Positions 8,185 through 58,817 of a DNA stretch of 64,000 nucleotides are shown here, piece by piece. Source of the stretch: Candidatus Poribacteria bacterium (GTDB lineage: Bacteria > Poribacteria > WGA-4E > WGA-3G). How positions within the stretch are numbered: the first letter of the stretch is position 1; every line of letters begins with the position of its first letter. The notes beneath the pieces were generated by a model. The model did not search any database and had not been told where the DNA came from. It saw nothing but the letters and a program-made list of their open reading frames with translations. A program made the position numbers and the translations under genes. The stretch covers positions 4,160,001-4,224,000 of the forward strand of contig OZ244048.1 in assembly GCA_965215265.1 (NCBI GenBank), in the 5' to 3' direction.

Positions 8185-8275
8185 TCTTGTATATCTCAGC
8201 ACGTTACCCCCTGATGTTTTCCCAAAATCTTTACAAAACTCGCCAGAGATTTTCGATGTTATGATGCTAAACCTC
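8185..8275 (+). repeat. modular palindromic intergenic element, left arm only
   Basis: TCTTGTATATCTCAGCAC...AAAACTCGCCAGAG...GATGTTATGA just after the stop at 8178. Confidence 0.7.
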
Positions 8276-8594
8276 AATTCAGCCAAGATGAACGGGTGAA
8301 CGTCGGAAATCGAGTCGTCGTCATGCTATATCTACGAGCAGCAAAAAGAGCACTATAACAAGAAAACGTCTCCATAGGTGAATGCGAAGCATGACCGGTT
8401 GTTTAGGCGGACGAAAAGCATCTGATGTCAAAATCGTTTTGCATGTGCGTATTTTACGATGCACTGACAACGATTGCAATCTTTTTTCTGGTTGGCAATT
8501 CATCGTTAGCCCGATGAAGAGGTTAGAATATTGATTATAACCAGAATAGTCACTTTGTAAGTAAATAATCACGTTTAAGAGAAGCAGGCCAATG

Positions 8595-8650
8595 ATTTTG
8601 TTTAGAGGTTAACATCACATCAGGCGTTGTGGTGCTGCACTATACGAATA
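8595..8650 (-). repeat. modular palindromic intergenic element, left arm remnant
   Basis: Reverse strand reads TATTCGTATAGTGCAGCAC...TGATGTTAAC, downstream of the minus-strand gene ending at 8704. Confidence 0.55.
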
Positions 8651-8703
8651 GAATTCCTGACAACCTCCCGAGAAGATTTCATGGAACAGAATCATTTGTT
8701 CTC

Positions 8704-9309
8704 TTAACGGCTACGCACGCTAATATCCGCAAACGCTTTTGACGGAAGATAAGTGCCTAAAACCTCTTGAGCCTTCGCCTCTGTGAGTCTTTGTGGCGTA
8801 ACTAACGCACATTTGGAACGCCCGCCTCTCCGCCAAGACATCTCAAAATCTGTATAACTGACCCTACGCTCAGAGAAGTTGTTCGGATTCTGAAGAATGA
8901 TTTCGCTAGCACGGTCATCATAACGCACCACAGGCACAAATTCCGGCTTTCGATTTTTGAATTGAATTATCACGACCGGTGCCCATCCTTTGGCAATAAA
9001 GGCTTTCAGAATATCCAGCGAGCCCCCGGAGACAATAGCGATATTATCCACTTTTCCACGCGTCGTTCCATAGATATCATCAATTCCGCCCCGACCAATA
9101 GGTGGAAACGTTTTGAAGGCATTTCTGAGGTAGGGCATCTTTCGTAAATCAACCATCGCGCTTGGCGGCAAATTCCGTTCCGGCTCCACCGACTCGGGTT
9201 CACTAACTGTGCCGGTTTCCGGAACATACGGAAACTGTCCTGTTTGAGGCGGAGGTCCACAACTTATCACCAACAGCACGAGCACGCACAGAAAAAAAAC
9301 AGACTTCAT
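8704..9309 (-). CDS. hypothetical lipoprotein (possible degenerate peptidase C39-like fold)
   Basis: MKSVFFLCVLVLLVISC lipobox; GWAPVVI...VVRYDD...LQNP...FEMSW; upstream in-frame extension is repeat-derived. Confidence 0.65.
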   Translation of the reverse strand: MKSVFFLCVLVLLVISCGPPPQTGQFPYVPETGTVSEPESVEPERNLPPSAMVDLRKMPYLRNAFKTFPPIGRGGIDDIYGTTRGKVDNIAIVSGGSLDILKAFIAKGWAPVVIIQFKNRKPEFVPVVRYDDRASEIILQNPNNFSERRVSYTDFEMSWRRGGRSKCALVTPQRLTEAKAQEVLGTYLPSKAFADISVRSR

Positions 9310-9321
9310 TTTTTTTACTCC

Positions 9322-9430
9322 TTTTTCGTATATCTCCGTACCGTCAACGTTTATGTCTTGTTTCATCGTGTGTAAATCTCGTCAGAGGTTAACTCGGTAA
9401 TGTCTTTAAAATCATAGACATAAACGGCTC
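9322..9430 (-). repeat. modular palindromic intergenic element, middle plus right arm
   Basis: Reverse strand: GAGCCGTTTATG...GACGAGATTTACACACG...GTACGGAGATATACGAAAA, then AGGAG RBS of the 9309 gene. Confidence 0.85.
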
Positions 9431-9484
9431 CGAACATAGAGGCTCATCTCGGATTCATGCACGAATCCCAGAAAACTTTCACTT

Positions 9485-10507: not shown

Positions 10508-10865
10508 GATGTTTGCTCCTTCTATTTTTGCGAGGCATCGGAAACCCCTAAGCGAGATTAACTGATAAAGTGCGCGGAACAACATGCATTGTTCAATTTT
10601 TTGTCGAGGGTAGCGAGAAGGCAGGCGAATTAAAGTAAGACCCCGCCAACGCGAGTGTTCCGGTGGATATCCCATCAGAGACTTTTTGGTCGGTTTTCGC
10701 TACAACCAGACGCATACCCCGGGCAAATACAAAAAAGCAATATGCATTTTCCACCTTTATATTATTATAATAAACTATAGCATGAAAAATAGCAAGAAAT
10801 AACTTTACTCTTAGCCTCTTTACTTTTTGTTAGGAAAATGTGATATCCGGTACTTGAAAAAAGAC

Positions 10866-10895
10866 TTGACATTCCTCAGAATCCGTATGTATAAT
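10866..10895 (+). promoter_or_regulatory. sigma70-type promoter for cysC operon
   Basis: TTGACA-N18-TATAAT. Confidence 0.65.
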
Positions 10896-14170: not shown

Positions 14171-14344
14171 TATTAACGGTTTCTTTTTAATAACAGATAC
14201 CTTCATTGATTAACGAGAATCCGCATTAGCGTAAAATTCACGAAAACCACAAACTTGATTAGATATTTGGAGGGTTTACGATTGCAATTCGGAATGACAT
14301 TATGCGACGCAACACCCTCTGAAACAACGAAGGAGACTTTACCC

Positions 14345-16348
14345 ATGCAAAACAAAACGCTACACACCTTATTTTCAATTCCAGCACTAGGCGCTGTAAT
14401 TCTGGGGCTAGTACTGTATATGTTAGTTACGCCGGAAACTGCCCACCCCCAATTCCCCAATGGTGCAATGGATATTGTGCAGGAACGCCAATTAACGCCT
14501 GATGATATCAAGGCTGCCCTCGCAACCTATACACCCACTGGCAGGCATGACGAGTATGTGATGTTCACATCAGGTGGGCACAGCGGGCAAGTGATAGTAA
14601 TCGGTATGCCCTCAATGCGTATCCTTAAAGTCATCGCCGTCTTCACACCAGATCCATGGCAGGGCTACGGATACGGTGTCAAGGAATTACCACTAAACGC
14701 CGCAAACGCCGGCGTTACAGTTGATGGACAAACCCTAACCTGGGCGGATACCCATCACCCCGCATTAAGCGAAACTAAAGGCGATTACGACGGACAATAC
14801 CTTTTCATCAATGACAAAGCCAACGGCCGCGTTGCAACAATTGACCTGAGAGATTTTGAGACAAAACAGATAGTAAAAAATCCTGTGGTACACAATGACC
14901 ATGGAGCGACGATGGTAACGCCTGACACGGAATACGTCATTGAAGGCTCACAATACGCAATGCCCTTGGGCAATGAATATGCCCCGATTTCTGAATACAA
15001 GGCAAAATATCGCGGATTGATGACTTTTTGGAAATTCCATCGAGAGCAGGGACGAATTGTGACAGATCAGTCCTTCGCACTAGAACTCCCCCCTTACTGG
15101 CAAGATTTAGCCGATGCCGGAAAACTAACCAGCGACGGATGGATTTTCTGCGGCTCTTTTAACTCTGAAATGGCCACAGGCGGGATTGAAGATGGGAACC
15201 CACCTTTTGAGGCCGGCACCACCGAACGAGATATGGATTACCTGCACCTTGTCAACTGGCGGAAAGCTGAACAGGTTTTCAAGGACGGAAAAACCACCAA
15301 CATAAACGGATTCCCGGTGATTTCGCTCGAGACTTCTGTCGCAGAAGGACTCCTCTACCTCACACCGGAACCCAAGAGCCCGCACGGCGTCGATGTGAGC
15401 CCTAGTGGAAACTACATCGTTGTTTCCGGCAAACTTGATCCGCACGTCACAGTCTATCACATCAATAAAATTAAAAAAGCAATAGAAGATAAAGATTACG
15501 AAGGTACAGATGAATACGGTGTCCCTATTCTGCGATTCGATGCTGTTCTTGAAGCACAGATCGAGGTTGGCCTAGGACCACTTCATACTCAGTTTGATAA
15601 CCAGGGCTATGCATACACCAGTCTTTTCCTTGACAGTGCTGTTGCTCGATGGACCCTTGGACCAGATGCGAAATACAAAGCCCCTGAACGCCACTGGAGA
15701 CTCATTCAGCAGCTCCCTGTTCACTACAACATTGGACATCTTGTTGCTGCCGAAGGTGACACCGTCGAACCAGATGGAAAGTACCTGGTCGCGCTAAACA
15801 AATGGGCAGTAGATCGATTCTTGAATGTTGGGCCCTTACTGCCACAAAATCTCCAACTGGTTGATATATCTGATACCGGGGACAATATGTCCCTCCTTTA
15901 CGATCTCCCGCTTGGAATTGGCGAACCGCATTATGCACAGATTATAAAAGCCGATAAACTTTCGGCATGGGAAATCTATCCAGAAGTCGGATGGGATACC
16001 GTCAAACAACAGAAACATGCAAAAGCATCAGAAAAGGGCGCTATCACCCGTAACGGAAACACCGTGGAAATCTCAATGACTGCCATCCGGAGCCACTTTG
16101 AACCCGAGATTATAGAGGTTAATAAAGGCGATAAAATTGTCTGGCACCTGACGAATCTTGAACGCACCTACGATGCGACCCACGGCTTCGCGCTACCCGG
16201 TTACAACATCACCTCAAGTATTGAGGCAGGCGAAACAGTAACGCTCGATTTCATTGCTGACAAAACAGGCGTCTTCTCGTTCTACTGCACAGAGTTCTGT
16301 TCAGCACTACACTTGGAGATGGTGGGATATTTCCTCGTCAAACCCTAA
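14345..16348 (+). CDS. nosZ: Sec-dependent (clade II) nitrous-oxide reductase
   Basis: FTSGGHSGQ, DTHHP, NDHG, SPHG, GPLHT, EPHY CuZ histidines; CuA motif CTEFCSALHLEM; no twin-arginine signal; AAGGAG RBS. Confidence 0.95.
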   Translation: MQNKTLHTLFSIPALGAVILGLVLYMLVTPETAHPQFPNGAMDIVQERQLTPDDIKAALATYTPTGRHDEYVMFTSGGHSGQVIVIGMPSMRILKVIAVFTPDPWQGYGYGVKELPLNAANAGVTVDGQTLTWADTHHPALSETKGDYDGQYLFINDKANGRVATIDLRDFETKQIVKNPVVHNDHGATMVTPDTEYVIEGSQYAMPLGNEYAPISEYKAKYRGLMTFWKFHREQGRIVTDQSFALELPPYWQDLADAGKLTSDGWIFCGSFNSEMATGGIEDGNPPFEAGTTERDMDYLHLVNWRKAEQVFKDGKTTNINGFPVISLETSVAEGLLYLTPEPKSPHGVDVSPSGNYIVVSGKLDPHVTVYHINKIKKAIEDKDYEGTDEYGVPILRFDAVLEAQIEVGLGPLHTQFDNQGYAYTSLFLDSAVARWTLGPDAKYKAPERHWRLIQQLPVHYNIGHLVAAEGDTVEPDGKYLVALNKWAVDRFLNVGPLLPQNLQLVDISDTGDNMSLLYDLPLGIGEPHYAQIIKADKLSAWEIYPEVGWDTVKQQKHAKASEKGAITRNGNTVEISMTAIRSHFEPEIIEVNKGDKIVWHLTNLERTYDATHGFALPGYNITSSIEAGETVTLDFIADKTGVFSFYCTEFCSALHLEMVGYFLVKP

Positions 16349-16350
16349 CA

Positions 16351-16708
16351 CATCTTGGTATACTGCAGCACACCAACACTCTATGTTATGATAACCTTAG
16401 CACAAAACTCGTCAGAGAGTTCCGATGTTATGAATCTAAACATCTTGGTATACTGCAGCACATCAACACTCTATGTTATGATAACCTTAGCACAAAACTC
16501 GTCAGAGAGTTCCGATGTTATGAATCTAAACATCTTGGTATACTGCAGCACATCAACACTCTATGTTATGATAACCTTAGCACAAAACTCGTCAGAGAGT
16601 TCCGATGTTATGAATCTAAACAGAGAGAGGATTTGGGTGGGCGGGCGACGAGATTGACACACGAGTACCCACGACATAAGCGGTGACGGTACGGAGATAT
16701 ACAAAAAA
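16351..16708 (+). repeat. modular palindromic intergenic element with three tandem 90-bp left units
   Basis: Near-identical 90-bp units at 16351, 16441 and 16531, then GACGAGATTGACACACG...GTACGGAGATATACAAAAA and AAGGAG-ATG. Confidence 0.9.
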
Positions 16709-16718
16709 TAAGGAGTTA

Positions 16719-19700
16719 ATGCCCGTGCAACCTGTAGGAAAAGTCCGGCAACATTGGTTAGTAAAAGTGCTGCTGATCGTCGCCGGTATCCTCTTGCTGA
16801 TTTCGCTGTTTTTTCCTTATTGGAGCGTAGAACTTGAAACGGGTATCTATCCCAAGGGACTGACGCTGCAGATCCGGCCTTATCGGCTTGAGGGCGACGT
16901 TGAAGAAATTGACCAACTTAACCACTACATCGGAATGCGGACGCTGAAAACTGCCGGGCAGCTTGAACGCGCCATCGCCATCCCTTCAATTATTCTCGCA
17001 GCTGTGTGTCTTCTCATCGCGCCCTTTGTTCCGAAAAAGTGGTCCCTATGGCTAACGTTGCCCGGGCTCGTGTTCCCTGCGATATTTCTTGGTGAGCTGT
17101 ATTGGTGGCTCCGCGAGAGCGGTCTAAATTTGCATCCCGATGCGCCTCTCAATCAGACAATCAAGCCATTCATACCGCCGCTCTTTGGCGATGGACAAAT
17201 CGCGCAGTTCAATGCAAAAGCCGCTTTCCAATTAGGCTTCTTCCTTGCCCTGCTCGCAGGGGCGTTGTCACGGGTGGCATTTTACCTGATGAAACCTCAA
17301 TGGTTAGCGAAAAGCCTGGTCGTTGATGCCGCCCTACTGTTGATGGTTTCGGTGCTCTTCCCATATTGGCGCGTGGATTTTGAAGCCAAGAAATTCCCGA
17401 AACCGCTGATTCTGCAGGTGCGCCCGCACCGCCTTGAAGGAAATATCCGCCAGATTGACAAACTCAACCAGGATTTGGGCATGCGCGAATTGGAAACCGT
17501 CGCAGAATTTGAGCGAAAAGTGGCCTTGCCGGCAATCGCCATCGCCACGTTCTGTTTGCTCATATCTCCTATTGTACACAAAAAATGGGCCTTCTGGTGC
17601 ACCCTTCCAAGTCTGCTGTTTCCACTTATATTCATTGCGGAACTCTATAGGTGGCTCCGAAACATAGGGCTAAATCTTGATCCGGAAATGGCACTCTATC
17701 CTGACGTACAACCTTTTGTGCCACCCCTTATTGGTATGGAAAAGGTAGGTTCACTCACAACTATCGCCACATTCCAAATAGGGTTCTATTTTGCTATCTT
17801 TGCCGCGTTGATAGCAGGCGTTTCACTCTATCTACAAAAACTGAAGCGACTCGACCTTCACAAGCAGCGCCTTACAATTTTCATGGGCGTGCTAACCCTC
17901 TCGATGACAATGCCGACAATGGCAGAGACGCGAATTGTCGAATCTGATACAACCATTGAGGAGACACTGAAGTTAGCTGAAAATGGCGACACAATTATTG
18001 TGAAAGGTGGGTACCATCAGGAACGTTTCGTGATAGATACATCCGTGACACTCATCGGTGAAGATAATCCGGTGATTGATGGAGCAGGTTTGGGCAGCGT
18101 TGTCATGGTGAACGCACCGGAAGTCACTATCCGTGGATTCACAATCCGCAACACAGGCATCCAACTTTCTTCCGGCGACGCGGGCATCATGATAAAAAAA
18201 GCAGAAGGCGCACTTATTGAGGAGAACCGCTTTGAAGATGTATTGTTCGGGGTTCAAGTACGAAACTCACCGTATACCCGTGTTCAAAACAACACATTTG
18301 AAGGCAAAGCCTTAGATGTGGGACGCCGCGGAGATCTCATTCGGGTTTGGTATAGTAATGGCACTCTTGTCGAAAACAATCATGTATCCGACGGGCGAGA
18401 TGTGGTGATCTGGTACTCAAAAGAGGTAACAGTCCAGCAAAACGAAGTGCGGAACGGGCGCTACGGCATTCATTTCATGTATTGCGACGACGCGACTATC
18501 ACTGAGAATCGGTTAATCGGAAACTCTGTCGGCATCTACCTGATGTACAGTTATCGTCTACAGTTGACGAAAAATTGGATTGTGGGCAACCGCGGCGCAA
18601 GTGGCTATGGAATCGGGCTCAAAGATATGCTTGATGGGGAAATCACGGATAACTTTATCGCAGACAACCGGGCCGGAATGTTCATGGATAACGCAACAAA
18701 TACCTTTAATAACAATCTGATTGCCTTCAACGATTCCGGGCTTTTAGTCCTACCCTCCGCACGAAAAAATCATTTCGCCAAAAATAGCTTTGTTGATAAT
18801 GGAGAGCAGGTAACGATTGAGGGACAAGGCTCAATTCGGAGTAATCAATGGACTGGAAATTATTGGAGTGATTACAGCGGTTACGATGCAAATCACGACG
18901 GCACCGGCGATGCACCCTACCAATCTGTGCATCTGTTTGAGAGGTTGACAGAACAACACCCAGTCCTGCGGCTTTTTACCTACAGCCCCTCAGTAAGTGC
19001 GATTGATTTTGCAACCCGCCTGTTTCCTCTATTTATGCCACAACCGAAACTCACCGATGAAGCGCCTCGCATGCACCCGATGCCTCCAATGCTTGAAACC
19101 CCTCAAAACCGAGTGTCAGCAGTCTGGCTGATCGGTTCTGCTATCTTATGTCTCTCAGGGCTCACCTGTGCCGGATCAGGCAAATGGGTTTCGCGTTTCG
19201 CAGGGCACATTTCACACAGTAGGCACCGCGAAAACCTCAAGATGGATGCGATGCCACATCACACAAGACTCGCACCTGCTATCTTCGTCCGCAATCTGAC
19301 CAAACGCTATGGGCGTGTAACCGCTGTGGACGATTTGAGTTTTGACGTGACTGCCGGTGAAACAGTTGCACTATGGGGCGCAAATGGTGCAGGGAAAACG
19401 ACGGTGCTACGGTGTATATTGGGTATCCTGCCTTTTGATGGAACGGTAACGGTAGGCAATAACGGCGAAGAGGCATCAGCTATATCCGCGTCAAATTCAT
19501 CTCGTACAGAAGGCAAAGTACTCCGTGGACAAATGGGTTACGTCCCGCAAGAGGTAAGGCTCCACAGCGACCTAACGGTGAAAGAGACAGTCACGTTTTA
19601 CGCCCGGCTTCGATCGGTACCGCAAATCGAGGTCGAGCAGCTCATGAAAGAGTGGCAGCTTTTCGAGATTCTAAATAAGCGGGTAGGCACACTTTCTGGC

Positions 19701-20171
19701 GGTATGAAACAGCGGCTGTCGCTCGCAATTGCGCTGCTCTCGAATCCACCGATTCTTTTATTAGATGAACCGACGAGTAATTTAGACAGAGAAACACGTC
19801 AGGAATTTTGGGCTGCATTGGAACATCTCAGGGCAGCGGGCAAAACACTCATCTTCTGCTCGCATCGACTTGATGAAATCACCGCGCTCGCAGACCGCGT
19901 CATCGTTATAAAGAACGGAAAAAAGGTCACAGAAGGCCCGCCCACTTCTCTTAACAGTCATCTTTCAACGGACGTGTTGTTGAATCTGACTATCCCCGAG
20001 GCGTTTCACGGGCGTGCGAAAACGCTCCTCGCGCAGCACGGTTTCTCTGTGCAGTGCAGCGGCATGAATCTCTCAGTCCACACAGCGAATAACATGAAAA
20101 TTGAGGTCTTTCAAGTCTTGATGGATGCCGCTATTCCTATACACGATTTTGAGTACTGCAGCCAATTTTAG
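16719..20171 (+). CDS. fusion protein: two NosB-like membrane domains + NosD + NosF ABC ATPase
   Basis: Two copies of PYW...L.G...ID.LN..GMR...PF.PPL.G; CASH beta-helix with GRYGIHFMY and GNYWSDY.GYD; Walker A GANGAGKT, LSGGMKQR, LLLDEPT. Confidence 0.85.
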   Translation: MPVQPVGKVRQHWLVKVLLIVAGILLLISLFFPYWSVELETGIYPKGLTLQIRPYRLEGDVEEIDQLNHYIGMRTLKTAGQLERAIAIPSIILAAVCLLIAPFVPKKWSLWLTLPGLVFPAIFLGELYWWLRESGLNLHPDAPLNQTIKPFIPPLFGDGQIAQFNAKAAFQLGFFLALLAGALSRVAFYLMKPQWLAKSLVVDAALLLMVSVLFPYWRVDFEAKKFPKPLILQVRPHRLEGNIRQIDKLNQDLGMRELETVAEFERKVALPAIAIATFCLLISPIVHKKWAFWCTLPSLLFPLIFIAELYRWLRNIGLNLDPEMALYPDVQPFVPPLIGMEKVGSLTTIATFQIGFYFAIFAALIAGVSLYLQKLKRLDLHKQRLTIFMGVLTLSMTMPTMAETRIVESDTTIEETLKLAENGDTIIVKGGYHQERFVIDTSVTLIGEDNPVIDGAGLGSVVMVNAPEVTIRGFTIRNTGIQLSSGDAGIMIKKAEGALIEENRFEDVLFGVQVRNSPYTRVQNNTFEGKALDVGRRGDLIRVWYSNGTLVENNHVSDGRDVVIWYSKEVTVQQNEVRNGRYGIHFMYCDDATITENRLIGNSVGIYLMYSYRLQLTKNWIVGNRGASGYGIGLKDMLDGEITDNFIADNRAGMFMDNATNTFNNNLIAFNDSGLLVLPSARKNHFAKNSFVDNGEQVTIEGQGSIRSNQWTGNYWSDYSGYDANHDGTGDAPYQSVHLFERLTEQHPVLRLFTYSPSVSAIDFATRLFPLFMPQPKLTDEAPRMHPMPPMLETPQNRVSAVWLIGSAILCLSGLTCAGSGKWVSRFAGHISHSRHRENLKMDAMPHHTRLAPAIFVRNLTKRYGRVTAVDDLSFDVTAGETVALWGANGAGKTTVLRCILGILPFDGTVTVGNNGEEASAISASNSSRTEGKVLRGQMGYVPQEVRLHSDLTVKETVTFYARLRSVPQIEVEQLMKEWQLFEILNKRVGTLSGGMKQRLSLAIALLSNPPILLLDEPTSNLDRETRQEFWAALEHLRAAGKTLIFCSHRLDEITALADRVIVIKNGKKVTEGPPTSLNSHLSTDVLLNLTIPEAFHGRAKTLLAQHGFSVQCSGMNLSVHTANNMKIEVFQVLMDAAIPIHDFEYCSQF

Positions 20172-20484
20172 TCTACGGCAGCACAACAAAGATTGCTGTA
20201 ATGTTCAATCCACTATAAATCTCGCCAGAGCCGTTTGATGTTATGATTTTAAAGGCTATACCTAGAGCGGCTCCGACGAGATTTACACACGAGCCATCAA
20301 AAGCATAAGTGCTGATGGTACGGAGATATACGAAAACACGAGATTTACACACGAGCCATCAAAGCATAAGCGCTGATGGCACGGAGATATACAAAAGATT
20401 GAATCTAAACATCAGGAGTCTCAGACGAGATTTACACACGAATACTCACGACATAAACGTCGACGGTACGGAGATATACAAAAA
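20166..20484 (+). repeat. modular palindromic intergenic element, complete, with three right-arm units
   Basis: TTTTAGTCTACGGCAGCAC (overlaps the stop)...AAATCTCGCCAGAG...CTCCGACGAGATTTAC...3x G(T/C)ACGGAGATATAC. Confidence 0.9.
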
Positions 20485-20498
20485 GAAGGGGACGAGGC

Positions 20499-21335
20499 AT
20501 GACAAATTCAGCAATTGTAAACATTGCGATTGTGATGCGTAAAGAGGCAGCGGATTCTAGACGTAATAAATGGTTTATCCTATTTACCGTGGTTTTTGCA
20601 GGATTAGCACTCGGATTCAGTCTGCTTGGATTTTCAGGGCTTGGCACTTTCGGCATTGCCGGGTTTGGTCGAACAGTCGCAAGCTTGATTAATCTTGTGA
20701 TGCTGATCGTACCGCTTATGGGGCTTATGTTAGGGGCTATCAGCATTTCCGGCGAACGCGAGCGCGGCAGCCTACTCCCCTTGCTCGCCCAACCCATAGT
20801 GCCCACAGAGCTTTTGCTCGGCAAATACTGCGGCACAGCAGTCGCGCTCACAGCATCAATTCTATTCGGCTTTGGATTCAGCGGCATCGTTATCGCTTGG
20901 CAGGGCGGGCTCGCACAATTCAGCGATTACTTGATGCTAGTTGGATTGACCTTACTAATTGGGCTGGTACATGTAAGCATCGGATTCCTCCTCTCTGCGT
21001 TTACATCGAAAAGCACAACAGCTATAAGTATCGCACTGCTCCTCTGGCTAACCATTGTCTTTATCAGCGACTTGGGGTTAATCGGGACAGCTGTTGTACT
21101 GCGGCTCGCACCTTCCGTAATGCTGGCATTCGCATTGATTAACCCTGCGCAGGTGTTCAAATTAGCAGCAGTTCATATCATACAAGGGAATCTCGAAATA
21201 CTCGGCGCAGCAGGACTTTATGCCGCCGATGTTTTTGGAGGTTTGCTGTTACCTACACTGATAGCGTTGCTTTCCCTATGGGTATTTATCCCCCTCTTGC
21301 TGGCAATTGGTGTCTTTCGACGAAGGAGTTTCTAA
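20499..21335 (+). CDS. nosY: NosY ABC transporter permease
   Basis: RTVASLINL..IVPL, ISGERERGSL..LLAQP, GKY.G, LINPAQVF; position in nos cluster. Confidence 0.85.
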   Translation: MTNSAIVNIAIVMRKEAADSRRNKWFILFTVVFAGLALGFSLLGFSGLGTFGIAGFGRTVASLINLVMLIVPLMGLMLGAISISGERERGSLLPLLAQPIVPTELLLGKYCGTAVALTASILFGFGFSGIVIAWQGGLAQFSDYLMLVGLTLLIGLVHVSIGFLLSAFTSKSTTAISIALLLWLTIVFISDLGLIGTAVVLRLAPSVMLAFALINPAQVFKLAAVHIIQGNLEILGAAGLYAADVFGGLLLPTLIALLSLWVFIPLLLAIGVFRRRSF

Positions 21336-21799
21336 TGAAACAGAGAACAAGCGGCACGTTACGCCTCACGTTGACGGTTATCATCATGAGTGTGATAACT
21401 CTCAGTTGTAACACAAAAGAGGAAACGCTTCCACGGATCCGCTACGGAGAGGAAACCTGTGATCGATGTCGCATGATCATCAGCGAAAAACGTTTTGCAG
21501 CCGCATACCAGACCGGTGAAAATGTGATGCAGAAATTCGACGATTTAGGATGTGCTGTCATTTATCGTAACGAACACAGTGAACGGATTAAACATTTTTG
21601 GGTATATGATTACGAAGAAACCGCTTGGTTAGATACAGCACAAGTGTTCTTCGTACGGAGTACAGACCTATTGACACCGATGGGCTACGGAATTGTCGCA
21701 GTAAAAACAAAAATAGAAGCGCAACGCTTGGCGGAAAATACAAACGGTGAACTTGTAGAATTTAACCAACTTCAACACATCTTAACCGATAATCAATAA
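21335..21799 (+). CDS. nosL: NosL copper chaperone lipoprotein
   Basis: Lipobox TLSC; CDRCRMII; KFDDLGC; TPMGYG. Confidence 0.9.
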   Translation: MKQRTSGTLRLTLTVIIMSVITLSCNTKEETLPRIRYGEETCDRCRMIISEKRFAAAYQTGENVMQKFDDLGCAVIYRNEHSERIKHFWVYDYEETAWLDTAQVFFVRSTDLLTPMGYGIVAVKTKIEAQRLAENTNGELVEFNQLQHILTDNQ

Positions 21800-21803: not shown

Positions 21804-22028
21804 TTTAGTATATCTTAGCACGTCACAAGTTGCTGCTATGTTAATAACTTTACAAATCTCGTTCCCTCGTCTACAGGAGCCCGATACAAGGCTACTGCTA
21901 TGTTAATAACTTTACAACACGAGCCATCAAAAGCATAAGCGGCGGTGGTACGGAGATATACGAAAATACGAGATTTACACACAAGCCATCACAACATAAA
22001 CGATGATGGTACGGAGATATACAAAAAA
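21804..22028 (+). repeat. modular palindromic intergenic element
   Basis: TTTAGTATATCTTAGCAC...2x GTACGGAGATATAC, ending directly at ATG 22029. Confidence 0.85.
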
Positions 22029-22829
22029 ATGAAAATTATTATTGCAGTGTTTACTGCTTGTTTACTGATTGTCACTGGATACCGACACCTAGTACTCAAA
22101 GAAACACGCTCAACAGCATGGGCAGCGGATGAAAGCACAGACACTTCTGTATCAAACACGGTGGAGACACCCGATACCGGCACCATTAAAGGTACAGTTA
22201 CATTTGAAGGTGACGCACCATTTAGGCGCGCAATCAACTTCGGGGCAGAATTGCAATGCAAAAAACTACACGAAGGAAAAGTGTACTACGAAGACCTTGT
22301 CGTCAGCGATGACGGAACACTTCGCGATGCCTTCATCTATATAAGAGGCAGCGTTAAGGGTGAATTTAAACCGACAACGGAACCCGTTGTCATCGATCAG
22401 AAGGGATGCATTTTTATACCACATGTGGTAGGGGCAATGGTCGGACAACCAGTAGAATTTCTGAACAGCGATCCGGTCCTTCACAATGTCCGAACGGTAT
22501 CCACACAAAAGAAACCGCTGAAAGAAACACCCTTTAACATTTCCCAGCCAAAGCAGGGAATGAAGTATACCCACACCTTTACCAAAATGGATATCGGCAT
22601 CCCGCTGCGATGTGATGTTCACCATTGGATGGCGGCGTATATTCATGTTGTACCGCATCCATTTTTTGCAGTCACAGACGAAAAAGGTACTTTTAAAATT
22701 CAAGGGCTCCCGCCACGCACTTACACTTTAGAGGTATGGCATGGAAAATTAGGGACGCAGAAAGTCAAAGTCACAGTTGAAGCGGGAAAAACGCAGAATG
22801 TGGATTTTTCGTATACTGCACCCCAATAA
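22029..22829 (+). CDS. secreted cupredoxin-like / carboxypeptidase-regulatory-like domain protein
   Basis: DQKGC.F.PHV, NSDPVLHNV, CDVHHWM.AYI, PHPFFAVTD..G.F.I.GLP. Confidence 0.75.
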   Translation: MKIIIAVFTACLLIVTGYRHLVLKETRSTAWAADESTDTSVSNTVETPDTGTIKGTVTFEGDAPFRRAINFGAELQCKKLHEGKVYYEDLVVSDDGTLRDAFIYIRGSVKGEFKPTTEPVVIDQKGCIFIPHVVGAMVGQPVEFLNSDPVLHNVRTVSTQKKPLKETPFNISQPKQGMKYTHTFTKMDIGIPLRCDVHHWMAAYIHVVPHPFFAVTDEKGTFKIQGLPPRTYTLEVWHGKLGTQKVKVTVEAGKTQNVDFSYTAPQ

Positions 22830-23099
22830 AGGCAGTTGTTATGTTTAGTCCTTTACAAACCTCGCCAGAGCCATTCGAGCTATTGAATCATAACAACGTA
22901 AATCCCTGGCGAAATTTATCTATAGATTGGCAGGATAAGGTAATCAGGTCCCAATGGGTGGCAGGAGAGACAAGAATACCGAACCTGCCAACACAAGTAT
23001 TAGCAAAACATAAACCGTTATGGTACGGAGATATACGAAAGATCAAAACAGAGCACGTTGATGTGCTGAAATATGCGAAAAAGGGAGATATACGAAAAA
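22805..23099 (+). repeat. modular palindromic intergenic element with nested second palindrome
   Basis: Left terminus inside the last codons of the upstream gene; insert TGGCAGG...AGGAGAGACAAGAATACC..CCTGCCA; ends GGAGATATACGAAAAA-ATG. Confidence 0.75.
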
Positions 23100-24302
23100 A
23101 TGAGATTTGTGCAAGCATTATCATTAAATCCGTCTTTGTGGTGCTGCTGTAGACGAATTATCCTTCTCAGCCTGTTTACTGTCGGAGGTGTTCTGTTCAT
23201 GCATCCGCACGCCGAAGGATATATCACAAAACGTTATACCGTCGAAAAAATCATCCAGGAAAGTAGCAACGTCGTTTTCGGAACCGTGACAGAAGTCGAT
23301 GCTAAACGACGCACTGCAACGGTTAAGGTTGAAGAAAATCTCAAAGGGACTAACGAATTTAACGAGATTAAGATCCGGTTTGATGTCTATAAAGGTGAAA
23401 AAGATCAGCGGCGCGAAATTGCAGCACTGTTAAAGAGAGATAAACCGATTATCTTCTTTTATCTCCATGAACGCGGACGGAGAATTGATGCACTTGGACA
23501 TATAGACGGGACTTGGTTTCAGACCCAAGCGACATATCGGAACAATAAACCACCGCGCTGGTGGATGTTCACTCACCTTGAAATATATCTCAATAAGGAT
23601 GAAGTCTCGAAAAGAGAATCAACACCGGATTTTCAGAAAGAACTACGGGCCGCCCTGAAACCACCAGAAGGGGTCGAGTTGACTCACATGTTGGTACTTA
23701 AAGCCGAGCGCTACGATTCCGAACACCGAATCCTATCTCAGATTAAACAAGTTGGAAAACAGTGGATGGCATATCAGGATACCCGAAACCGGGATTTACC
23801 CGGAATTGAGGACACCGACATCTTGTGGCTCGGCTTCCGCGCACTCTCCGAAGGGCGCTACACGCTCAACAAAACACAAGAAATTCGGATTAAAAAATTT
23901 GTCCGAGCAGGCGGTGTCGTGATTGCCTCTGGGCAGGATAGCGATACCGACCGGCCATGCAGAACCGGTTGGTTACCAGAACCGCTCCGTGGTGTTGAAA
24001 GCAAGTCCCGCAATGATTTTAAACCCACATCCCGCGCCGGCGAACTGTTTAAAGCACCACACCGCATCCGCTCCGGGCAGCTTGTCCTTGACGATTCATG
24101 GGACGGATGGAACCAGAAATATGAAGTACTCGCAACTACTAATAACGGAAAGGAAATTGTTGTCGCTAAACTGAAATATGGGAAAGGGATGTACCTCATT
24201 ACGAGTCTTCACAATCGTAATAATTCGCATGTTTCTAAAAATCGCCGGATGCTGGAGAACCTGATGCATTTCGCTATAGAATTTCTGAGTCAATCTAGAT
24301 AG
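23100..24302 (+). CDS. hypothetical secreted protein with C-terminal GATase-like (DUF4350-like) domain
   Basis: Hydrophobic signal ending HAEG; IKKFVRAGGVVI and YGKGMYLIT motifs; start uncertain. Confidence 0.65.
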   Translation: MRFVQALSLNPSLWCCCRRIILLSLFTVGGVLFMHPHAEGYITKRYTVEKIIQESSNVVFGTVTEVDAKRRTATVKVEENLKGTNEFNEIKIRFDVYKGEKDQRREIAALLKRDKPIIFFYLHERGRRIDALGHIDGTWFQTQATYRNNKPPRWWMFTHLEIYLNKDEVSKRESTPDFQKELRAALKPPEGVELTHMLVLKAERYDSEHRILSQIKQVGKQWMAYQDTRNRDLPGIEDTDILWLGFRALSEGRYTLNKTQEIRIKKFVRAGGVVIASGQDSDTDRPCRTGWLPEPLRGVESKSRNDFKPTSRAGELFKAPHRIRSGQLVLDDSWDGWNQKYEVLATTNNGKEIVVAKLKYGKGMYLITSLHNRNNSHVSKNRRMLENLMHFAIEFLSQSR

Positions 24303-24310: not shown

Positions 24311-24623
24311 TTTAGTATCTCTTAGCACAACAAAGACTGCTTTTATGAACACCTTCGCACAAATCTCGTCTGAGCCCTTCGCGGTTTAGATTCTAAACAG
24401 AGAAAGCCTCCGACGAGATTTATACACGAGCCTTCAAAAGCATAAGCGATGATGGCACGGAGATATACAAAAGATTGAATCTAAACATCAGGAGCCTCCG
24501 ACGAGATTTACACACGAGCCTTCAAAAGCATAAGCGATGATGGTACAGAGATATACGAAAAAACGAGATTTACACACGAGCCTTCAAAAGCATAAGCGAT
24601 GATGGCACGGAGATATACAAAAA
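24311..24623 (+). repeat. modular palindromic intergenic element, complete, with three right-arm units
   Basis: TTTAGTATCTCTTAGCAC...AAATCTCGTC...3x ACGAGATTTA(C/T)ACACGAGCCTTCAAAAGCATAAGCGATGATGG(C/T)AC(G/A)GAGATATAC. Confidence 0.9.
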
Positions 24624-27219: not shown

Positions 27220-27428
27220 TTTTCCTATATTTCAGCACATCACAAGTCGCTGCTATGTTAAATCCTTTACAAATCTCGTTCTTTCGTCTACAGGAGCCCG
27301 CTAAAGGCTGCTGCTATGTTAATAACTTTACAACACGAACCATCAAAAGCATAAGCGGCGATGGCACGGAGATATACGAAAAAACGAGATTTACACACGA
27401 GTTATTATTACATAAGCATTGATGGTAA
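27220..27428 (+). repeat. modular palindromic intergenic element
   Basis: TTTTCCTATATTTCAGCAC...AAATCTCG...GCACGGAGATATACGAAAA...ACGAGATTTACACACG. Confidence 0.85.
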
Positions 27429-32068: not shown

Positions 32069-32089
32069 TTACGGAGATATACAAAAAAA
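32069..32089 (+). repeat. isolated right terminus of the modular element
   Basis: TTACGGAGATATACAAAAAAA, preceded by hairpin TCCCTGC...GCAGGGA. Confidence 0.5.
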
Positions 32090-42182: not shown

Positions 42183-42642
42183 TTCGTGAATTGGATAGTT
42201 TATAGTCAAACAGAGGCAGCTGCCAGCTAACCCGTTTTCACGAAAGAAACGGCTTTGTATTTTATGAACGCAGTGGTAGTCTACGCTCACGAAAACCTCT
42301 CGTGAAACTTTTCGTGAATTGCATACCACGAACCAAAACAGAGGAAACTGCCAGATAAGCCAGTTTCACGAAAAAACGCATTTTGTATTTTATGAACGCA
42401 GTGGTAGTCTACGCTCACGAAAATCCCTCGTGAAACTTTTCGTGAATTGGAGACTTTGGAGCTAAACAGAGGAAATTACCACAGAATCCAGTTTCACGAA
42501 AAAACGCATGTCGAATCTTCTGAACGCAGTGGTAGTCTACGCTCACGAAAACCTCTCGTGAAACTTTTCGTGAATTGGAGACTTTGCAGCTAAACAGAGG
42601 AAATTACCACAGAATCCAGTTTCACGACGGAGATATACGAAA
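42183..42642. repeat. 128-bp tandem repeat (about 3.5 copies) rich in TTCACGA/TCGTGAA inverted motifs
   Basis: GTGGTAGTCTACGCTCACGAAAA at 42273, 42401, 42529; ends in a CGGAGATATACGAAA terminus. Confidence 0.9.
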
Positions 42643-44731: not shown

Positions 44732-44894
44732 TTTTTCGCCTACTGCAGCACTAGACTAATTAATGTAATGTAAACCCTAGCACAAATCTCGTCTGAGCCC
44801 TTCGAGGTCTAGAATCTAAACAGAGAAAGCCTCCGACGAGATTTACACACGAATACTCACAACATAAACGTTAACGGTACGGAGATATACAAAA
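44732..44894 (+). repeat. modular palindromic intergenic element, single complete copy (about 163 bp)
   Basis: TTTTTCGCCTACTGCAGCAC...AAATCTCGTC...GACGAGATTT...GTACGGAGATATACAAAA. Confidence 0.9.
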
Positions 44895-49647: not shown

Positions 49648-50047
49648 TTTTTAGTATATTTTAGTACAATAAAGGCTGCTGCAAGGTTTAACCTTAGCAT
49701 AAACCTCACCAGAGCCGTTTGGTGTTATGATTTTAAAGACTATACCCAGAGAGTCTCCTACGAAATTTACATCGGAGCGTTTAAACATAACCTTTGACGG
49801 TACGGAGATATACGAAAGATCAAAGCATAAACGGTGATGGTACGAAGATATACAAAAGATTGAATCTAAACATCGGAAACCTCCGACGAGATTTACACAC
49901 GAATACTCACAACATAAACGCCGACGGTACGAAGAGATACAAAAGATTGAATCTAAACATCGGAAACCTCCGACGAGATTTACACGCGAGTTGTCAATAC
50001 CTAAGCGTTGATGGTACGGAGATATACGAAAACGGAGATATACGAAA
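49648..50047 (+). repeat. modular palindromic intergenic element with multiple right-arm units
   Basis: TTTTTAGTATATTTTAGTAC...several GTACG(G/A)AGATATAC and GACGAGATTTACAC units. Confidence 0.9.
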
Positions 50048-50067
50048 GAAGGAGGCAATGTTTCATA

Positions 50068-53202: not shown

Positions 53203-53604
53203 TTTGTCTACTGCAGCACAATACCAATTGCTGCAATGTAAACCTTAGCACAAATCTCGTTCTTTCGTCTACAGGCACCCCATAAAGGCTGCTGCGATTT
53301 ACAAACCTTTACAAATCTCGCCAGAGCCGCTTTATGCTATGCCTAAGGAATCTCCGACGAGATTTACACAAGAGCAGCGTTGTAAAATCATAACCTTTGA
53401 TGGTACGGAGATAGACAAAAAACGAGATTTACACACGAGTTATTATTACATACGCGGTGATAGTACGGAGATATACGAAAAAACGAGATTTACACACGAG
53501 TTATTATTACATACGCGGTGATAGTACGGAGATAGACAAAAAAACGAGATTTACATCGGAGTTGACACAACATAACCTTTGATGGTACGAAGATAGACAA
53601 AAAA
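53203..53604 (+). repeat. modular palindromic intergenic element with four right-arm units
   Basis: TTTGTCTACTGCAGCAC...; 4x ACGAGATTTACA...GTACG(G/A)AGATA(T/G)AC. Confidence 0.9.
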
Positions 53605-55163: not shown

Positions 55164-55304
55164 ATTAACAACAATTTAAATCGTACCTGATTTGAGCGGT
55201 TTTCCGATTCACCTGAGCCAATTGTCAGTAAATAGAGAAATCCGCTTTCATGCAGGGATCCGCGGGAGGTTGAGGAGCTGGTATTGCGAAAGTTGCAGGA
55301 AGAA

Positions 55305-55470
55305 GATGAGGTTTAGAGTCAATACATCAAACGGCTCCCAGTGGGTGGCAGGTAAAAGGTTATCTTGTCTCTCCTTTCAGGAGAGACAAAGAATACCTAT
55401 CCTGCCACTGACGAGATTTACCTATAAGACACCGTGACATCAGTGATGATGGTACGGAGATATACAAAAA
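55305..55470 (+). repeat. modular element right arm with nested second palindrome
   Basis: GTGGCAGG...TCTTGTCTCTCCT-TTC-AGGAGAGACAAAGA...CCTGCCAC, then GACGAGATTTAC...GTACGGAGATATACAAAA. Confidence 0.75.
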
Positions 55471-56214: not shown

Positions 56215-57218
56215 AACCCCAGCACCCTTTAGCTATAGGCATCATCGGAGCAGGTGCGATGGGTAACTCCCATCACGCAGCGATTGTCGACTACGGTGCA
56301 ACCGTTGTCGCAGTTCACGATATCGTACCTGAAGCAGTACAACAATTGGCAACAGTTGCGGGTGCTGAAATTGCCACGGACGACTTAGATGCCTTTTTTG
56401 AAGTGGAGTTGGATGGCGTAGTTATTACCACGCCACCGCCCGTTCGATTCGAACCCATCCGATTGGCTTGTGAACGCGGCATCCCCCTCATGGTTGAAAA
56501 ACCACCGGCACTGAATATGAAAGACGGGCGGCGATGCCTCGCATCCATTCAGAAGACGAATCTACTCACAGCAGTCGGTTTCCAACTCCGCTATCATCCA
56601 CTCTATGAACAACTTAAAGACTTAATTGCTGCAGAAACTGTTCACTTAGTACGGACAGTATGCACAGTTGATTACTACCATAGCTTCCGCATGTCTCCGT
56701 GGTTCCTACAGTCGGAAATTAGCGGAGGCCCTTTGCCCGAACAAGCAATTCATGTACTAGACTGTGCACGGTTCATCATGGGAAACCCCAAACCCATTCA
56801 GGCACACGCCTTAGCCACCAAGAATATGGCGTTGGAACGGACCGAATTTGATGCCGAAAATGCCATCCAGATGACTTACGAATTAGACAACGGCGTTTTT
56901 GGAACACACATGAACCATTGCGGCACAGAACGCTTTAGTTTTGATATTGAAATTGTCGGACCGCATCTGCGATTACAAGCAAATATGACCAGCAATCGTA
57001 TTGTCGGATATCTCAACGGACAAGAGCTCAATAAACCTGCCCCGACTCAAAACAGTGTAGGCTTGGATAAAACAGGCACGTGGTTACGTGCGATTGAGAC
57101 CGGAGACCGCTCGCTCATCCGATCTGATTTCACCGATGCGCTTCACACATTAGCACTCATCGACGCAGCCGTCAAAAGCCGCGGCACCGGAAAATTTATT
57201 CACGTGGAGGAACTGTAA
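56211..57218 (+). CDS. Gfo/Idh/MocA family oxidoreductase
   Basis: IIGAGAMG, VEKP, SGGPLPEQAIH.LD; ATG overlaps upstream TGA. Confidence 0.9.
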   Translation: MKPQHPLAIGIIGAGAMGNSHHAAIVDYGATVVAVHDIVPEAVQQLATVAGAEIATDDLDAFFEVELDGVVITTPPPVRFEPIRLACERGIPLMVEKPPALNMKDGRRCLASIQKTNLLTAVGFQLRYHPLYEQLKDLIAAETVHLVRTVCTVDYYHSFRMSPWFLQSEISGGPLPEQAIHVLDCARFIMGNPKPIQAHALATKNMALERTEFDAENAIQMTYELDNGVFGTHMNHCGTERFSFDIEIVGPHLRLQANMTSNRIVGYLNGQELNKPAPTQNSVGLDKTGTWLRAIETGDRSLIRSDFTDALHTLALIDAAVKSRGTGKFIHVEEL

Positions 57219-57562
57219 TGGCACGGATTAATTGGATGTATTTTCGGAACAACTGAACTTCTTGCCGAAAAGCGCAGGAGGTTCTTGACGCAAACAACTT
57301 TAAAGTGGAAACACGGACAAATGCCCGGAAGGAAAAACTGGATGCAACGGCTACGTGGGAATTACTCCACAATGCCACGGAAATTACTGTCGCCAAAGGT
57401 AAGCGGATTGAAACGTTTATCCCAACACCGGATTCACAAGAAGCAATCCTGAAAGCGGTTATGGGACGCAGCGGTAACTTGCGCGCCCCAACGGTGCAAA
57501 TAGCCAATGCCTTTTTTGTCGGTTTCAACGAAGCACTCTATACAGAAGCAACACTGCTTTAA
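57218..57562 (+). CDS. ArsC-family selenoprotein, Sec at 57254-57256
   Basis: GGAGG then ATG overlapping the upstream TAA; MARINWMYFRNN-TGA-TSCRKAQEVL in frame with ORF 57305..57562 (GRSGNLRAPT...VGFN). Confidence 0.85.
57257..57291 (+). promoter_or_regulatory. putative SECIS element
   Basis: GCG-CAGGA-GGT-TCTTG-A-CGC hairpin with GGT loop 23 nt after the TGA. Confidence 0.55.
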
Positions 57563-57635
57563 TCTCACTTTGCTCGAGCCGGAATAACCAAGGCAATATC
57601 AGAAAATTCGATTCTAGGCAGAAGGAAAGCAACTT

Positions 57636-58424
57636 ATGGCAATAAATAAAATTCTGATTACCGGGGCGTGTGGATATCTGGCACGGTTTATCGTAGAACG
57701 GTTGCAAAGTCCATATCAGTTAACATTAGCAGACATAGTCGAACCGCCTCAGCAGTTTAGCAATACCCGTTTTATCAAAACCGATGTTACGAAAGCCGCT
57801 GAAATTGAAGAGGCGTGCATCGATCAAGATGCTGTTATCCACCTCGTTGCACTGGTGCGAGAACGGCACGGCAAACCCGCATCGCTATTTGCAGATGTCA
57901 TGGTTAAAGGCACTTGGAATGTTGCTGAAGCGTGTATCAAACGTGGCGTGCAAAAACTGATTAATATCTCTAGTATTTCGGCATGCCATCCTATCCCTGG
58001 CGGAAAATTGCCGTATCAAGTTGGCGATGAATTCCATTTTGGCATCGGGGATTTATACTATTCACTCGCGAAACACCTCGGCGAACAGATCGGCTTGGCG
58101 TACCATCAAGCACACGGATTGAACGTTATTCACATCCGTCCCGGTGTCATCGCAGGGGATGGACACAACCCCGGTCCTTCGCCACCTGATATTGTAACGG
58201 AACCGTGGTTTGTTTACGTGCATCCTAGGGATATCGCGCAGTGCGTAGCGTGTGCAATTGAAACCGAAACGGTGAGATATGGCACTTATAACGCTGTTGC
58301 AGGGCGCACAGACTCGCGCTTTGATTGGAAACAGGCAAATCAGGAACTCGGATATTCTCCACAACACAATTGGCCAGAAATCCCTGACAAAGACAAGCAT
58401 TCGTCTACTGCAGCACAACAATGA
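57636..58424 (+). CDS. NAD-dependent epimerase/dehydratase (uronate dehydrogenase-like SDR)
   Basis: ITGACGYLA, YSLAK (YxxxK); last codons supplied by the repeat element terminus. Confidence 0.85.
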   Translation: MAINKILITGACGYLARFIVERLQSPYQLTLADIVEPPQQFSNTRFIKTDVTKAAEIEEACIDQDAVIHLVALVRERHGKPASLFADVMVKGTWNVAEACIKRGVQKLINISSISACHPIPGGKLPYQVGDEFHFGIGDLYYSLAKHLGEQIGLAYHQAHGLNVIHIRPGVIAGDGHNPGPSPPDIVTEPWFVYVHPRDIAQCVACAIETETVRYGTYNAVAGRTDSRFDWKQANQELGYSPQHNWPEIPDKDKHSSTAAQQ

Positions 58425-58817
58425 TTGCTGTTCCACAACATACGCCTTTATCGTGCTACCGTATACTAATATTTATTTGTGCAGGCTTCCTTGCTTTTAG
58501 CAAGCAACTCCTTTTGTTAAACAAGCAAAAGCATTGAAATTTTCGGCAATGCAGACTAAAAATCCCCCCCGATACAAGGCTGCTGCTCTTTCGTCTACAG
58601 ATGCCCCATAAAGGCGGCTGCTATGTTAATAACTTTACAAATCTCGCCAGAGCCGTTTATGTCTACGATTTTAAAGACATTACCTAGTTAACCTCCGACG
58701 AGATTTACATCGGATTTAACAATACATAACCCTTGATGGGGCTGAAATATACAAAAAAACGAGATTTATACAGTACTGAATACAACATAAACCTTTACGG
58801 TACGGAGATAGACAAAG
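58400..58817 (+). repeat. modular palindromic intergenic element (interrupted)
   Basis: TTCGTCTACTGCAGCAC inside the gene end; AAATCTCGCCAGAG...GACGAGATTT...GTACGGAGATAGACAAA then GAGG RBS. Confidence 0.8.

Follow-up and report, generated by a model that had tools for sequence, protein, structure and literature searches.

One-sided intergenic repeats in a Poribacteria genome carry truncated tails of a terminase small-subunit gene

Twenty-eight arms of an intergenic repeat in this Poribacteria genome are preceded, in fixed register, by 5′-truncated tails of a terminase small-subunit gene (terS), and one whole orphan terS gene survives outside the 64-kb window (the entire 64,000-nucleotide stretch of DNA analyzed here); both observations are new. 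The tails suggest that we are dealing with the terminal part of a packaging-gene element and not with an ordinary jumping repeat. We favor, at a probability of roughly 0.55, the reading that the repeats are one-ended deposits of a terminase element's end, made by an enzyme acting in trans.

Architecture and extent of the repeat family

The basic unit is a one-sided 88-bp arm. The first-pass annotation had taken a 163-bp inverted repeat as the basic unit; head-to-head full copies of this kind do exist, but the one-sidedness of the unit and the terminase gene tail before the copy at 55305 had been overlooked. A genome-wide profile scan of the kind that annotation called for (88 positions, accepted at 14 bits or more) returned 901 matches, against 0 in the same genome reversed, and a motif check with a box scan found motifs at all 16 loci listed there. 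Within the window, the profile marked 43 units at 14 places (Table 1). The outer end was reached by 828 of the 901 matches and the core end by 542, with 344 outer-only versus 58 core-only matches. Of 167 strict matches, 143 have a spacing of 44 bp between the two boxes of the arm and 18 a spacing of 45 bp, which replaces the earlier figure of 45–55 bp. Since the arm extends about 30 bp further inwards, up to a palindromic core around GANTC, a full copy consists of two 88-bp units head to head, with cores falling into classes of 39, 47, and 54–55 bp; solo arms stop at the core centre. Units are stacked in tandem, as originally described, and also head to head. Copies retain the outer end but differ in how much of the inner side is left: some consist of the outer box alone, others of 61 or 88 bp, others of 88 bp followed inwards by 22–150 bp of terS, and one includes the whole gene.

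Across the genome, 336 loci are decorated with the repeat, 186 of them with a single recognised arm only, and terminal inverted repeats are present on the head-to-head full copies. Spacers shared at 90% or more were found in 7.7% of 156 pairs of neighbouring loci versus 2.2% of random pairs, indicating modest local copying between neighbouring loci. Beyond the outer end, no sequence is shared except for duplicated host cassettes. An ATG was considered as part of the unit and rejected, as an A-run plus TG follows only 35 of 465 terminal ends. The strict motif was present in 1 of 41 genomes searched; its six matches in metagenome contigs were all discarded as chance on the basis of profile score and context, and a looser motif matched viral contigs once.

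The two arms of a full copy resemble each other no more than random arms do (similarity 0.46 vs 0.49), so they represent unrelated alleles. No arm-to-arm covariation was found; for the comparison of core halves, only 5 cores fitted the pattern used, too few to assess covariation. The DNA of the copy at 44732 folded no better than its shuffles (z 0.05), and Rfam covariance models gave 0 matches in the window at the gathering threshold. The arm comparison, the fold, and the Rfam search thus give no support to the structured RNA module that had been offered as one explanation.

Table 1. Repeat copies and the terminase gene tail in the window; strand denotes the direction from core to outer box.
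Feature	Position	Strand	Basis	Remark
Whole 88-bp unit, outer end toward stop of gene 6466-8178	8187..8271	-	profile	
Outer half of unit, toward stop of minus-strand gene ending at 8704	8604..8648	+	profile	
Whole unit, GGAG-type outer box, before start of minus-strand gene	9324..9410	-	motifs + profile	
Three near-identical tandem units and one opposite, between nosZ and nosD/F	16355..16706	.	profile	G098: bare gap between nosZ and nosD/F
Head-to-head pair, 61-bp unit and 88-bp unit, between nosD/F and nosY	20167..20483	.	profile	G098: 14-bp gap
Four short units after nosL	21805..22025	.	profile	Last outer box in place of ribosome-binding region present in G098
Units carrying inserted TGGCAGG hairpin module	22807..23157	.	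profile	First unit overlaps upstream gene, rewriting its last codons
Head-to-head pair and two tandem units	24311..24622	.	profile	G001 and G004: 15-bp gap
Four short units	27222..27427	.	profile	
Lone outer box	32069..32087	+	motifs + box scan	
Lone outer box	42623..42642	+	motifs + box scan	
Simplest full copy: two 88-bp units head to head, 47-bp-class core	44734..44893	.	profile + core classes	
Head-to-head pair and tandem units	49651..50048	.	box scan + profile	
Head-to-head pair (39-bp core class) and 61-bp tandem units	53203..53602	.	core classes + profile	
5′-truncated 62-bp terminase small-subunit gene tail	55255..55316	+	sequence match	Stop codon within core of next unit
Unit behind terminase tail, split by TGGCAGG hairpin module	55310..55469	+	profile	
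Lone outer box at 58400, then head-to-head pair and 61-bp unit	58400..58816	.	box scan + profile	

Terminase tails and their possible origin

Matches to terS tails occupy 29 places (28 fragments, including the one at window position 55255, and the whole gene), each followed by a unit at an offset that is constant within each allele group. An arm was visible in 39 of 44 BLAST rows; the 5 armless rows comprise one from a locus with an arm further on, three of low complexity, and one internal terS piece (246899). A looser count gave 38 rows, but its control reached 15/600, so the stricter figure of 28 tails is used. Pairwise codon differences, from pairs that are not independent, numbered 272 synonymous versus 90 non-synonymous among 13 tails, with none at second positions, and 136 versus 52 among 7 longer tails. 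Most differences among the tails are thus silent, so the tails stem from many functional donors; the diverged donors are absent from this genome. Three tails begin at the CGAGATT word where 61-bp units also begin. At 156 free core ends, judged by eye, the terS tail was the only coding sequence recurring as truncated pieces, the other shared flanks being other repeats or duplicated host segments.

The 240-aa terS ORF matches terminase small-subunit families (phrog_4102, E 1.4e-11). Its structure model had a pLDDT of 86, compared with only 39 for a single-sequence fold; the best solved fold was Sf6 TerS, with a middling score (Z 6.3, rmsd 7.6, 116 aligned), and the best viral matches were terminase subunits. 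Profile and fold both match TerS. No phage genes flank the orphan gene, whose neighbours are an ECF sigma cassette and an IS remnant, and no terL was found in this genome (G000). Neither a circle nor a parent was detected at the terS locus in contigs from 4 of 23 sequencing runs (X7 barely covers the locus), and viral contigs yielded no locus for terS or its closest relative, with alignments too variable for locus finding. One contig of X6 appears to skip the element in the IS remnant at this locus.

In related genomes, terminase genes lie among host genes with no portal or capsid genes nearby, and terS homologs in G157 and G085 directly precede terL-type ORFs. Three 3-kb terS–terL copies, 90–92% alike, lie at unrelated places in G029, and terL occurs in 2–6 copies in 4/4 genomes of genus g8 and 9/10 of g10. 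These terminase units look mobile. The g8 and g10 units do not end in arms of the present kind: those of g10 stop at the terL stop codon, and in g8 a dispersed motif (7–13 copies per genome) with less sharp ends lies upstream of terS.

In the explanation that we favor, the 88-bp unit would be the downstream end of a mobile element carrying a phage-type terminase small-subunit gene, the parent possibly being a phage satellite or a stand-alone terminase cassette. Transfer would begin at the outer end and stop at variable points in a one-ended fashion, with an enzyme supplied in trans by an element that this genome no longer contains; new copies may be drawn to existing ones, and most of the stop-to-start pattern would stem from selection and not from targeting. 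As for cutting, TerS might read the two 44-bp-spaced modules, after which the TerL nuclease of a helper would cut and host repair would finish. The terminase itself is the single most likely cutter, although only a tentative candidate, and a rolling-circle-type enzyme of the parent could replace it within the same explanation. Against a terminase-end origin stand the small share of units with a recognisable tail (28 of 901), the missing terL, the non-phage surroundings of the orphan terS, the viral contigs devoid of a detected parent, and the armless g8 and g10 units.

Moreover, the core of the unit supplies the stop codon in all three terS allele groups, much as units rewrite the ends of host genes, so the arms may have invaded terS. 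This would agree with a selfish repeat of the REP/BIME type, mobilized by an enzyme that has nothing to do with terminase, whose arms hit the stop of a passenger terS; arm-bearing copies of a multi-copy terS family would then have become prolific donors that dragged flanking DNA. We regard this scenario as possible but distinctly less probable than deposition from a terminase element. In each of three different terS endings the stop comes from the core, CGTC and GACG words lie beside the core hairpin of dimers, the target is not duplicated, and the copies are intergenic, clustered, dimeric, and partly in-frame, traits that the consulted excerpt describes for REPs (PMC3733652). However, the dragged tails come from terS only, with many silent-site-diverged donors outside this genome, and no Y1 (RAYT) transposase (PF01797) was matched in G000 (0 matches; control positive in 6/14). 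Since CGTC REPs also go without a Y1 transposase, this absence is compatible with the CGTC branch.

Insertion sites and gene context

Orthologous gaps without the repeat in G098, G001, and G004, together with paralogous empty sites within this genome, bear out the initial proposal of non-autonomous mobile DNA: as in MITEs, the copies are small, noncoding, and numerous, with empty orthologous sites. The empty-site pairs speak against the classical MITE version of that proposal, as no target-site duplication and no overlap was seen in 31 filled/empty pairs at 11 loci, several of the pairs being noisy; 0–57 target bases were missing, and the target often loses bases. A constant end with variable 5′ truncation and no duplication is instead the pattern of one-ended IS91-type elements. 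Among the enzyme families searched in this genome, the DDE transposase families covered left weak remnants only, and neither an IS110 transposase nor Ku (control positive in 1/14) was found; in the search for PF04986 (Y2), the control matched nowhere. A single reverse transcriptase match appears to belong to a complete diversity-generating retroelement with an Avd-like gene and a template repeat, and no link between it and the arms was found.

Immediately after one full copy, whose core is an almost perfect palindrome, comes the start of a resolvase gene (PF00239, E 3.7e-45). The repeat could accordingly be imagined as a serine recombinase resolution or attachment site, with the core as crossover, the boxes as accessory sites, and head-to-head copies as products of antiparallel recombination, in keeping with solo arms ending at the core centre. 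We consider this unlikely, as a TGGCAGG module interrupts the gene ahead of the helix-turn-helix, the DNA upstream of its relatives in G028, G037, and G048 (three homologs, one shared region) is unrelated, and a single adjacency of this sort is what chance would produce among 336 decorated loci. Lone outer boxes, 61-bp units, and variable terS tails are also left unexplained by core recombination. An integron-like recombination site assembling gene arrays, akin to the attC-like cassette site suggested initially, would account for the one element per junction along long gene runs. It is nonetheless extremely improbable: the genes belong to core operons whose order is conserved, G098 has nosZ-nosD/F-nosY-nosL and the next four genes in an identical arrangement with bare gaps in place of the repeat, and the only tyrosine recombinase match in the genome is broken.

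Co-orientation with neighbouring genes, evident in the window, is weak genome-wide, where co-oriented genes flank 259 of 320 loci (81%) versus 2608 of 3436 neighbouring gene pairs (76%), a count based on crude gene calls. The stop-to-start placement reported in the first-pass annotation holds as an enrichment: outer ends lie within 30 nt of an in-frame start in 149/550 cases, compared with 33/600 random intergenic positions, and near a stop in 106/550, compared with 37/600, but 295/550 lie at neither. Thirteen of the 336 loci fall inside called ORFs, some of them spurious, with clear in-frame copies within uvrA and a glycyl-tRNA ligase gene (both named from sequence). GGAG-type terminal ends were found at in-frame starts (68/190) more often than at stops (23/190), with a peak two bases past the profile end (19/68), and often land at the expected position of a ribosome-binding site. 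This bias, and the replacement of the native ribosome-binding region before at least one window gene, would suit a host-selected expression module (a translation start or mRNA processing signal) spread by helping the genes it precedes. Such a module is very unlikely, given the lack of an Rfam match and of covariation between arms, the restriction to one species, the 295 ends at neither start nor stop, and the copies that break the IS remnant and the resolvase region.

Implications and known systems

For many bacterial interspersed repeats, CGTC-type REPs included, the origin and the moving enzyme are unknown. The present family keeps physical traces of its source, which would be a phage packaging gene and not a transposase. 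If the terminase does make the end, the packaging motor would also act as a one-ended mobility enzyme and the repeats would be mass-produced packaging starts. It is conceivable, if doubtful, that Poribacteria host mobile DNA consisting of phage packaging parts only, in the form of stand-alone terminase cassettes with cut ends that are inserted into the chromosome, and that in this species the packaging-site end has multiplied out of control into a non-autonomous family of 900 copies. Nearly every decorated operon would then have a potential packaging start, and the chromosome would turn into a substrate for high-rate transduction each time a helper phage provides heads and a large subunit. Under a weaker interpretation, the variety of the tails at silent sites still documents repeated deposition by an unseen element population in an uncultured symbiont; on either reading, the stand-alone terminase genes of related genomes call for explanation. 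Our search of freely accessible article texts found no description of terminase-mediated insertion, nor of a standalone, orphan, or solitary terminase or terminase-only element, and titles and abstract openings held no description of repeats, MITEs, or terminases of this kind in Poribacteria.

Among known systems, REP, BIME, and REPIN sequences share hundreds of species-limited intergenic copies, head-to-head dimers, clusters, and some in-frame copies, and the excerpt of Di Nocera et al. (2013) reports no dedicated transposase for CGTC-tagged REPs (PMC3733652). A REP unit is, in the same excerpt, an 8–9-bp stem-loop with a GTAG or CGTC tag, whereas the present unit is 88 bp long, has two boxes spaced by 44 bp, is strongly one-sided, and is attached to terminase small-subunit tails in a genome with no Y1 transposase match. 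Prokaryotic MITEs are likewise described, in a review, as small, noncoding, non-autonomous, intergenic, and nested with other repeats (PMC10969869); unlike them, the present family shows no target-site duplication and frequent loss of target bases, and most units are one-sided, with full copies built from unrelated alleles. The words "terminase" and "phage" are absent from the main text of that review (PMC10969869).

One-ended miniature derivatives of IS801/IS91 resemble the present family in the constant right end downstream of a gene, in discrete, variable 5′ truncations with capture of upstream DNA, and in an enzyme able to act in trans, as set out in the excerpt consulted (PMC3189936). In the present family, however, the constant end follows terS and not a rolling-circle transposase gene (PMC3189936), and the A-run at the outer end does not resemble a target tetranucleotide, since most empty sites lack it. 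The small terminases of SaPI/PICI elements are the other close parallel: terS without its own terL, as here, would need the large subunit of a helper (PMC6687093, in part). In contrast to SaPI/PICI, terS in this genome comes with neither an integrase nor a replicase nor an island, and the arm would be a putative pac only. Related sites occur across the host chromosome in both cases, but SaPI pseudo-pac sites are described in that excerpt as look-alikes distributed in the genome and not as inserted copies (PMC6687093).

Distribution and architecture of the 88-bp repeat

The window belongs to a 4.83-Mb single-contig genome (G000), and the motifs described in the first-pass annotation were found where it had placed them. 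The strict two-box pattern occurred 167 times in G000 versus 0 in the reversed genome and was absent from 40 relatives, one of the same genus; BLAST for the repeat in five relatives returned a single 19-base match and nothing else. Box profiles detected 600 two-box arms spread over 336 loci, and an 88-position unit profile gave 901 matches, 43 of them inside the window, with 0 in the control. Loci were clumped, with 46% lying less than 3 kb from the next (19% expected).

Each unit, or arm, begins with half of a palindromic core (around GANTC), followed by an inner box (GAGATTTAC), a spacer variable in sequence but constant in length, and, 44 bp beyond the inner box, an outer box (GAGATATAC); it ends in a short A-run. 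The 163-bp copy previously described as the simplest full element exists and comprises two head-to-head units that meet at the core. Full copies fell into core-length classes of 39, 47, and 54-55 bp. Paired arms within a full copy resembled each other no more than random arms did (mean, 0.46 [n=86] versus 0.49), and tandem neighbors were near-identical in 26% of 122 pairs. The repeat family is one-sided: 828 of the 901 profile matches reached the outer end and 542 the core end, with 344 reaching the outer end alone and 58 the core end alone. A separate family, the TGGCAGG hairpin modules, was found inserted in units. Cores at G000:926382 and 2322483 carry an approximately 30-bp duplication around a 34-37 bp insert.

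In the relative G098, nosZ, nosD/F, nosY, nosL, and the four genes that follow occur in identical order with short, element-free gaps, and the last three genes of this series retain their order and element-free gaps in G001 and G004 as well. Other copies lie between core genes of conserved operons, with gene names read off the sequences. The elements invaded pre-existing operons. Among 31 filled/empty pairs at 11 loci, several of them noisy, target bases were usually lost at the paralogous empty sites and no target-site duplication was found. The proposed co-orientation with flanking genes was little above background genome-wide (81% versus 76%), whereas the claimed placement at stops and starts held for outer ends, which were enriched at starts (149/550) and stops (106/550) compared with 33 starts and 37 stops among 600 random intergenic points. 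GGAG-type ends preferred starts (68 versus 23 at stops), and some copies are read in frame within genes. Selection probably filters where copies survive, and the GGAG end could substitute for a ribosome-binding site. The nitrous-oxide reductase cluster at window positions 14255-21799 contains a long nosD-nosF fusion; the fusion cluster is also present in G098.

Terminase small-subunit tails

In front of many solo arms stand the same few codons, with the stop codon inside the core. These codons are 5′-truncated tails of one gene family, the sole whole copy of which (Table) has profile matches to terminase small-subunit (TerS) families. Its predicted structure resembles Sf6 TerS (Z 6.3, middling), and its best viral structure matches are terminase subunits. 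Homologs in G157 and G085 sit ahead of large-subunit (terL)-type ORFs; G000 has no terL. BLAST with eight seed tails yielded 44 rows, corresponding to 28 fragments (22-150 bp) and the whole gene, and the unit follows every one in a fixed register. The five rows without an arm comprise three hits to low-complexity sequence, an internal piece of terS, and one row from a locus where the arm sits further along. Three tails begin at CGAGATT, the same word where 61-bp units begin. In the largest of three allele groups (13 tails, last 12 codons), 272 silent versus 90 replacement changes were counted, with 0 at second positions, and seven longer tails gave 136 versus 52, all counts being pairwise over non-independent pairs. 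Because silent changes dominate, the tails diverged as working genes, and the deposits thus derive from many donors. The main rival, a REP-like repeat that invaded terS, is favored by the core supplying the stop codon in each of the three allele groups, but no comparable tails from other genes were found, and we consider it less likely than the terS-element reading proposed below. The terS island at L035:3675-6012 showed depth below its left flank in sequencing runs X5 and X6 and was nearly uncovered in X7 (contigs only); it may vary between strains.

Features of G000 and of related genomes (L, individual loci)
Feature	Location	Description
Whole terS	G000:3557480-3558202	240-aa ORF, two helix-turn-helix stretches
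terS tail fragment	window 55255-55316	one of 28
Tyrosine recombinase, sole match	G000:4117565	internal stop
Serine resolvase gene	L005:6473-7200 (G000:3344472)	directly behind full element
Diversity-generating retroelement, complete-looking	L051, G000:1416700-1421400	two target genes, Avd-like gene, reverse transcriptase, template repeat
DNA methylase cassettes	G000:548625, 818061, 1395792, 4115554, 4829267, others	
terL amid host genes	L087, L088, L089, L099-L101, L110-L128	2-6 copies/genome, several genera

Candidate enzymes and terminase genes in relatives

No match to Y1, IS110, or Ku was found in G000, nor any intact XerC/XerD-type tyrosine recombinase (one match among six candidates). 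The only reverse transcriptase is part of the diversity-generating retroelement. The serine resolvase gene is cut by a TGGCAGG hairpin module before its helix-turn-helix; it is an improbable mover, as the gene is broken and its relatives have other upstream DNA. About ten near-identical DNA methylase cassettes occur, five of which stop exactly at an arm. A repeated promoter with an approximately 400-bp leader, often with arms, stands before paralogous exported-protein genes at G000:1415700-1416620 and about ten other places.

Of the phylum's 176 genomes, 35 matched a TerS profile built from 101 homologs. G029 carries three 3-kb terS-terL units, 90-92% alike, each amid unrelated host genes. A 30-base motif upstream of their terS occurs in 7-13 copies per genome in all four genomes of that genus and is absent from 155 other genomes; several copies reach variable distances towards terS. 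Matches to terL came from 34 of 159 genomes, frequently with 2-6 copies each. Of 20 contexts inspected among 82 listed matches, picked to span several genomes, 19 lay amid host genes and one in a phage contig. No portal or capsid genes were evident within 11 kb at those 19, and when 30 nearby ORFs (of the 68 next neighbors plus two) were scanned for family matches, a portal was identified at the phage locus only and an integrase at one other. A 170-230 aa ORF, presumably the small subunit, abuts terL at 14 of the 19. Many of the tabulated terL genes have a small-subunit-sized ORF in front, with frames mostly intact and places differing; such loci may represent a terminase-only unit that is mobile or defensive. 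The G000 arm is absent from these terminase units. Orphan terS-like genes, some broken, occur in genus g3 (L082, L083, L084, L085, L086), and those in G110 and G013 face genes that we take to be Rpn-like nucleases; the arm precedes 5-6 copies of the G000 relatives of these genes.

Proposed mechanism and comparison with known systems

One end of the repeat is fixed and the other variable with preferred stops, upstream DNA is captured, and no duplication is made, a pattern that by analogy is that of one-ended transfer. According to PMC6687093, a lone TerS of SaPIs can direct the TerL of a helper to its own pac site as well as to look-alike chromosomal sites. Given the one-ended pattern, terS at the fixed end, the enzyme searches, and the SaPI precedent, the arm would serve as the functional end of an element that carries terS and is moved in one-ended fashion by an enzyme acting in trans (probability roughly 0.55), with terminase itself a candidate for that enzyme at a lower probability, below even odds.

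The literature covered, largely open-access, described neither a repeat family linked to terS nor terminase cassettes that stand alone. Membership failed for MITEs (no target-site duplication), REPs (unit shape), IS91 derivatives (wrong gene, terS, at the end), and attC; with this last failure and the element-free gaps between genes kept in order in relatives, the earlier attC-like cassette idea is not supported. The repeat works as a one-ended, BIME-like filler. One-ended transfer, the pattern it shows, was measured for IS801 (PMC3189936); here, however, terS occupies the fixed end.
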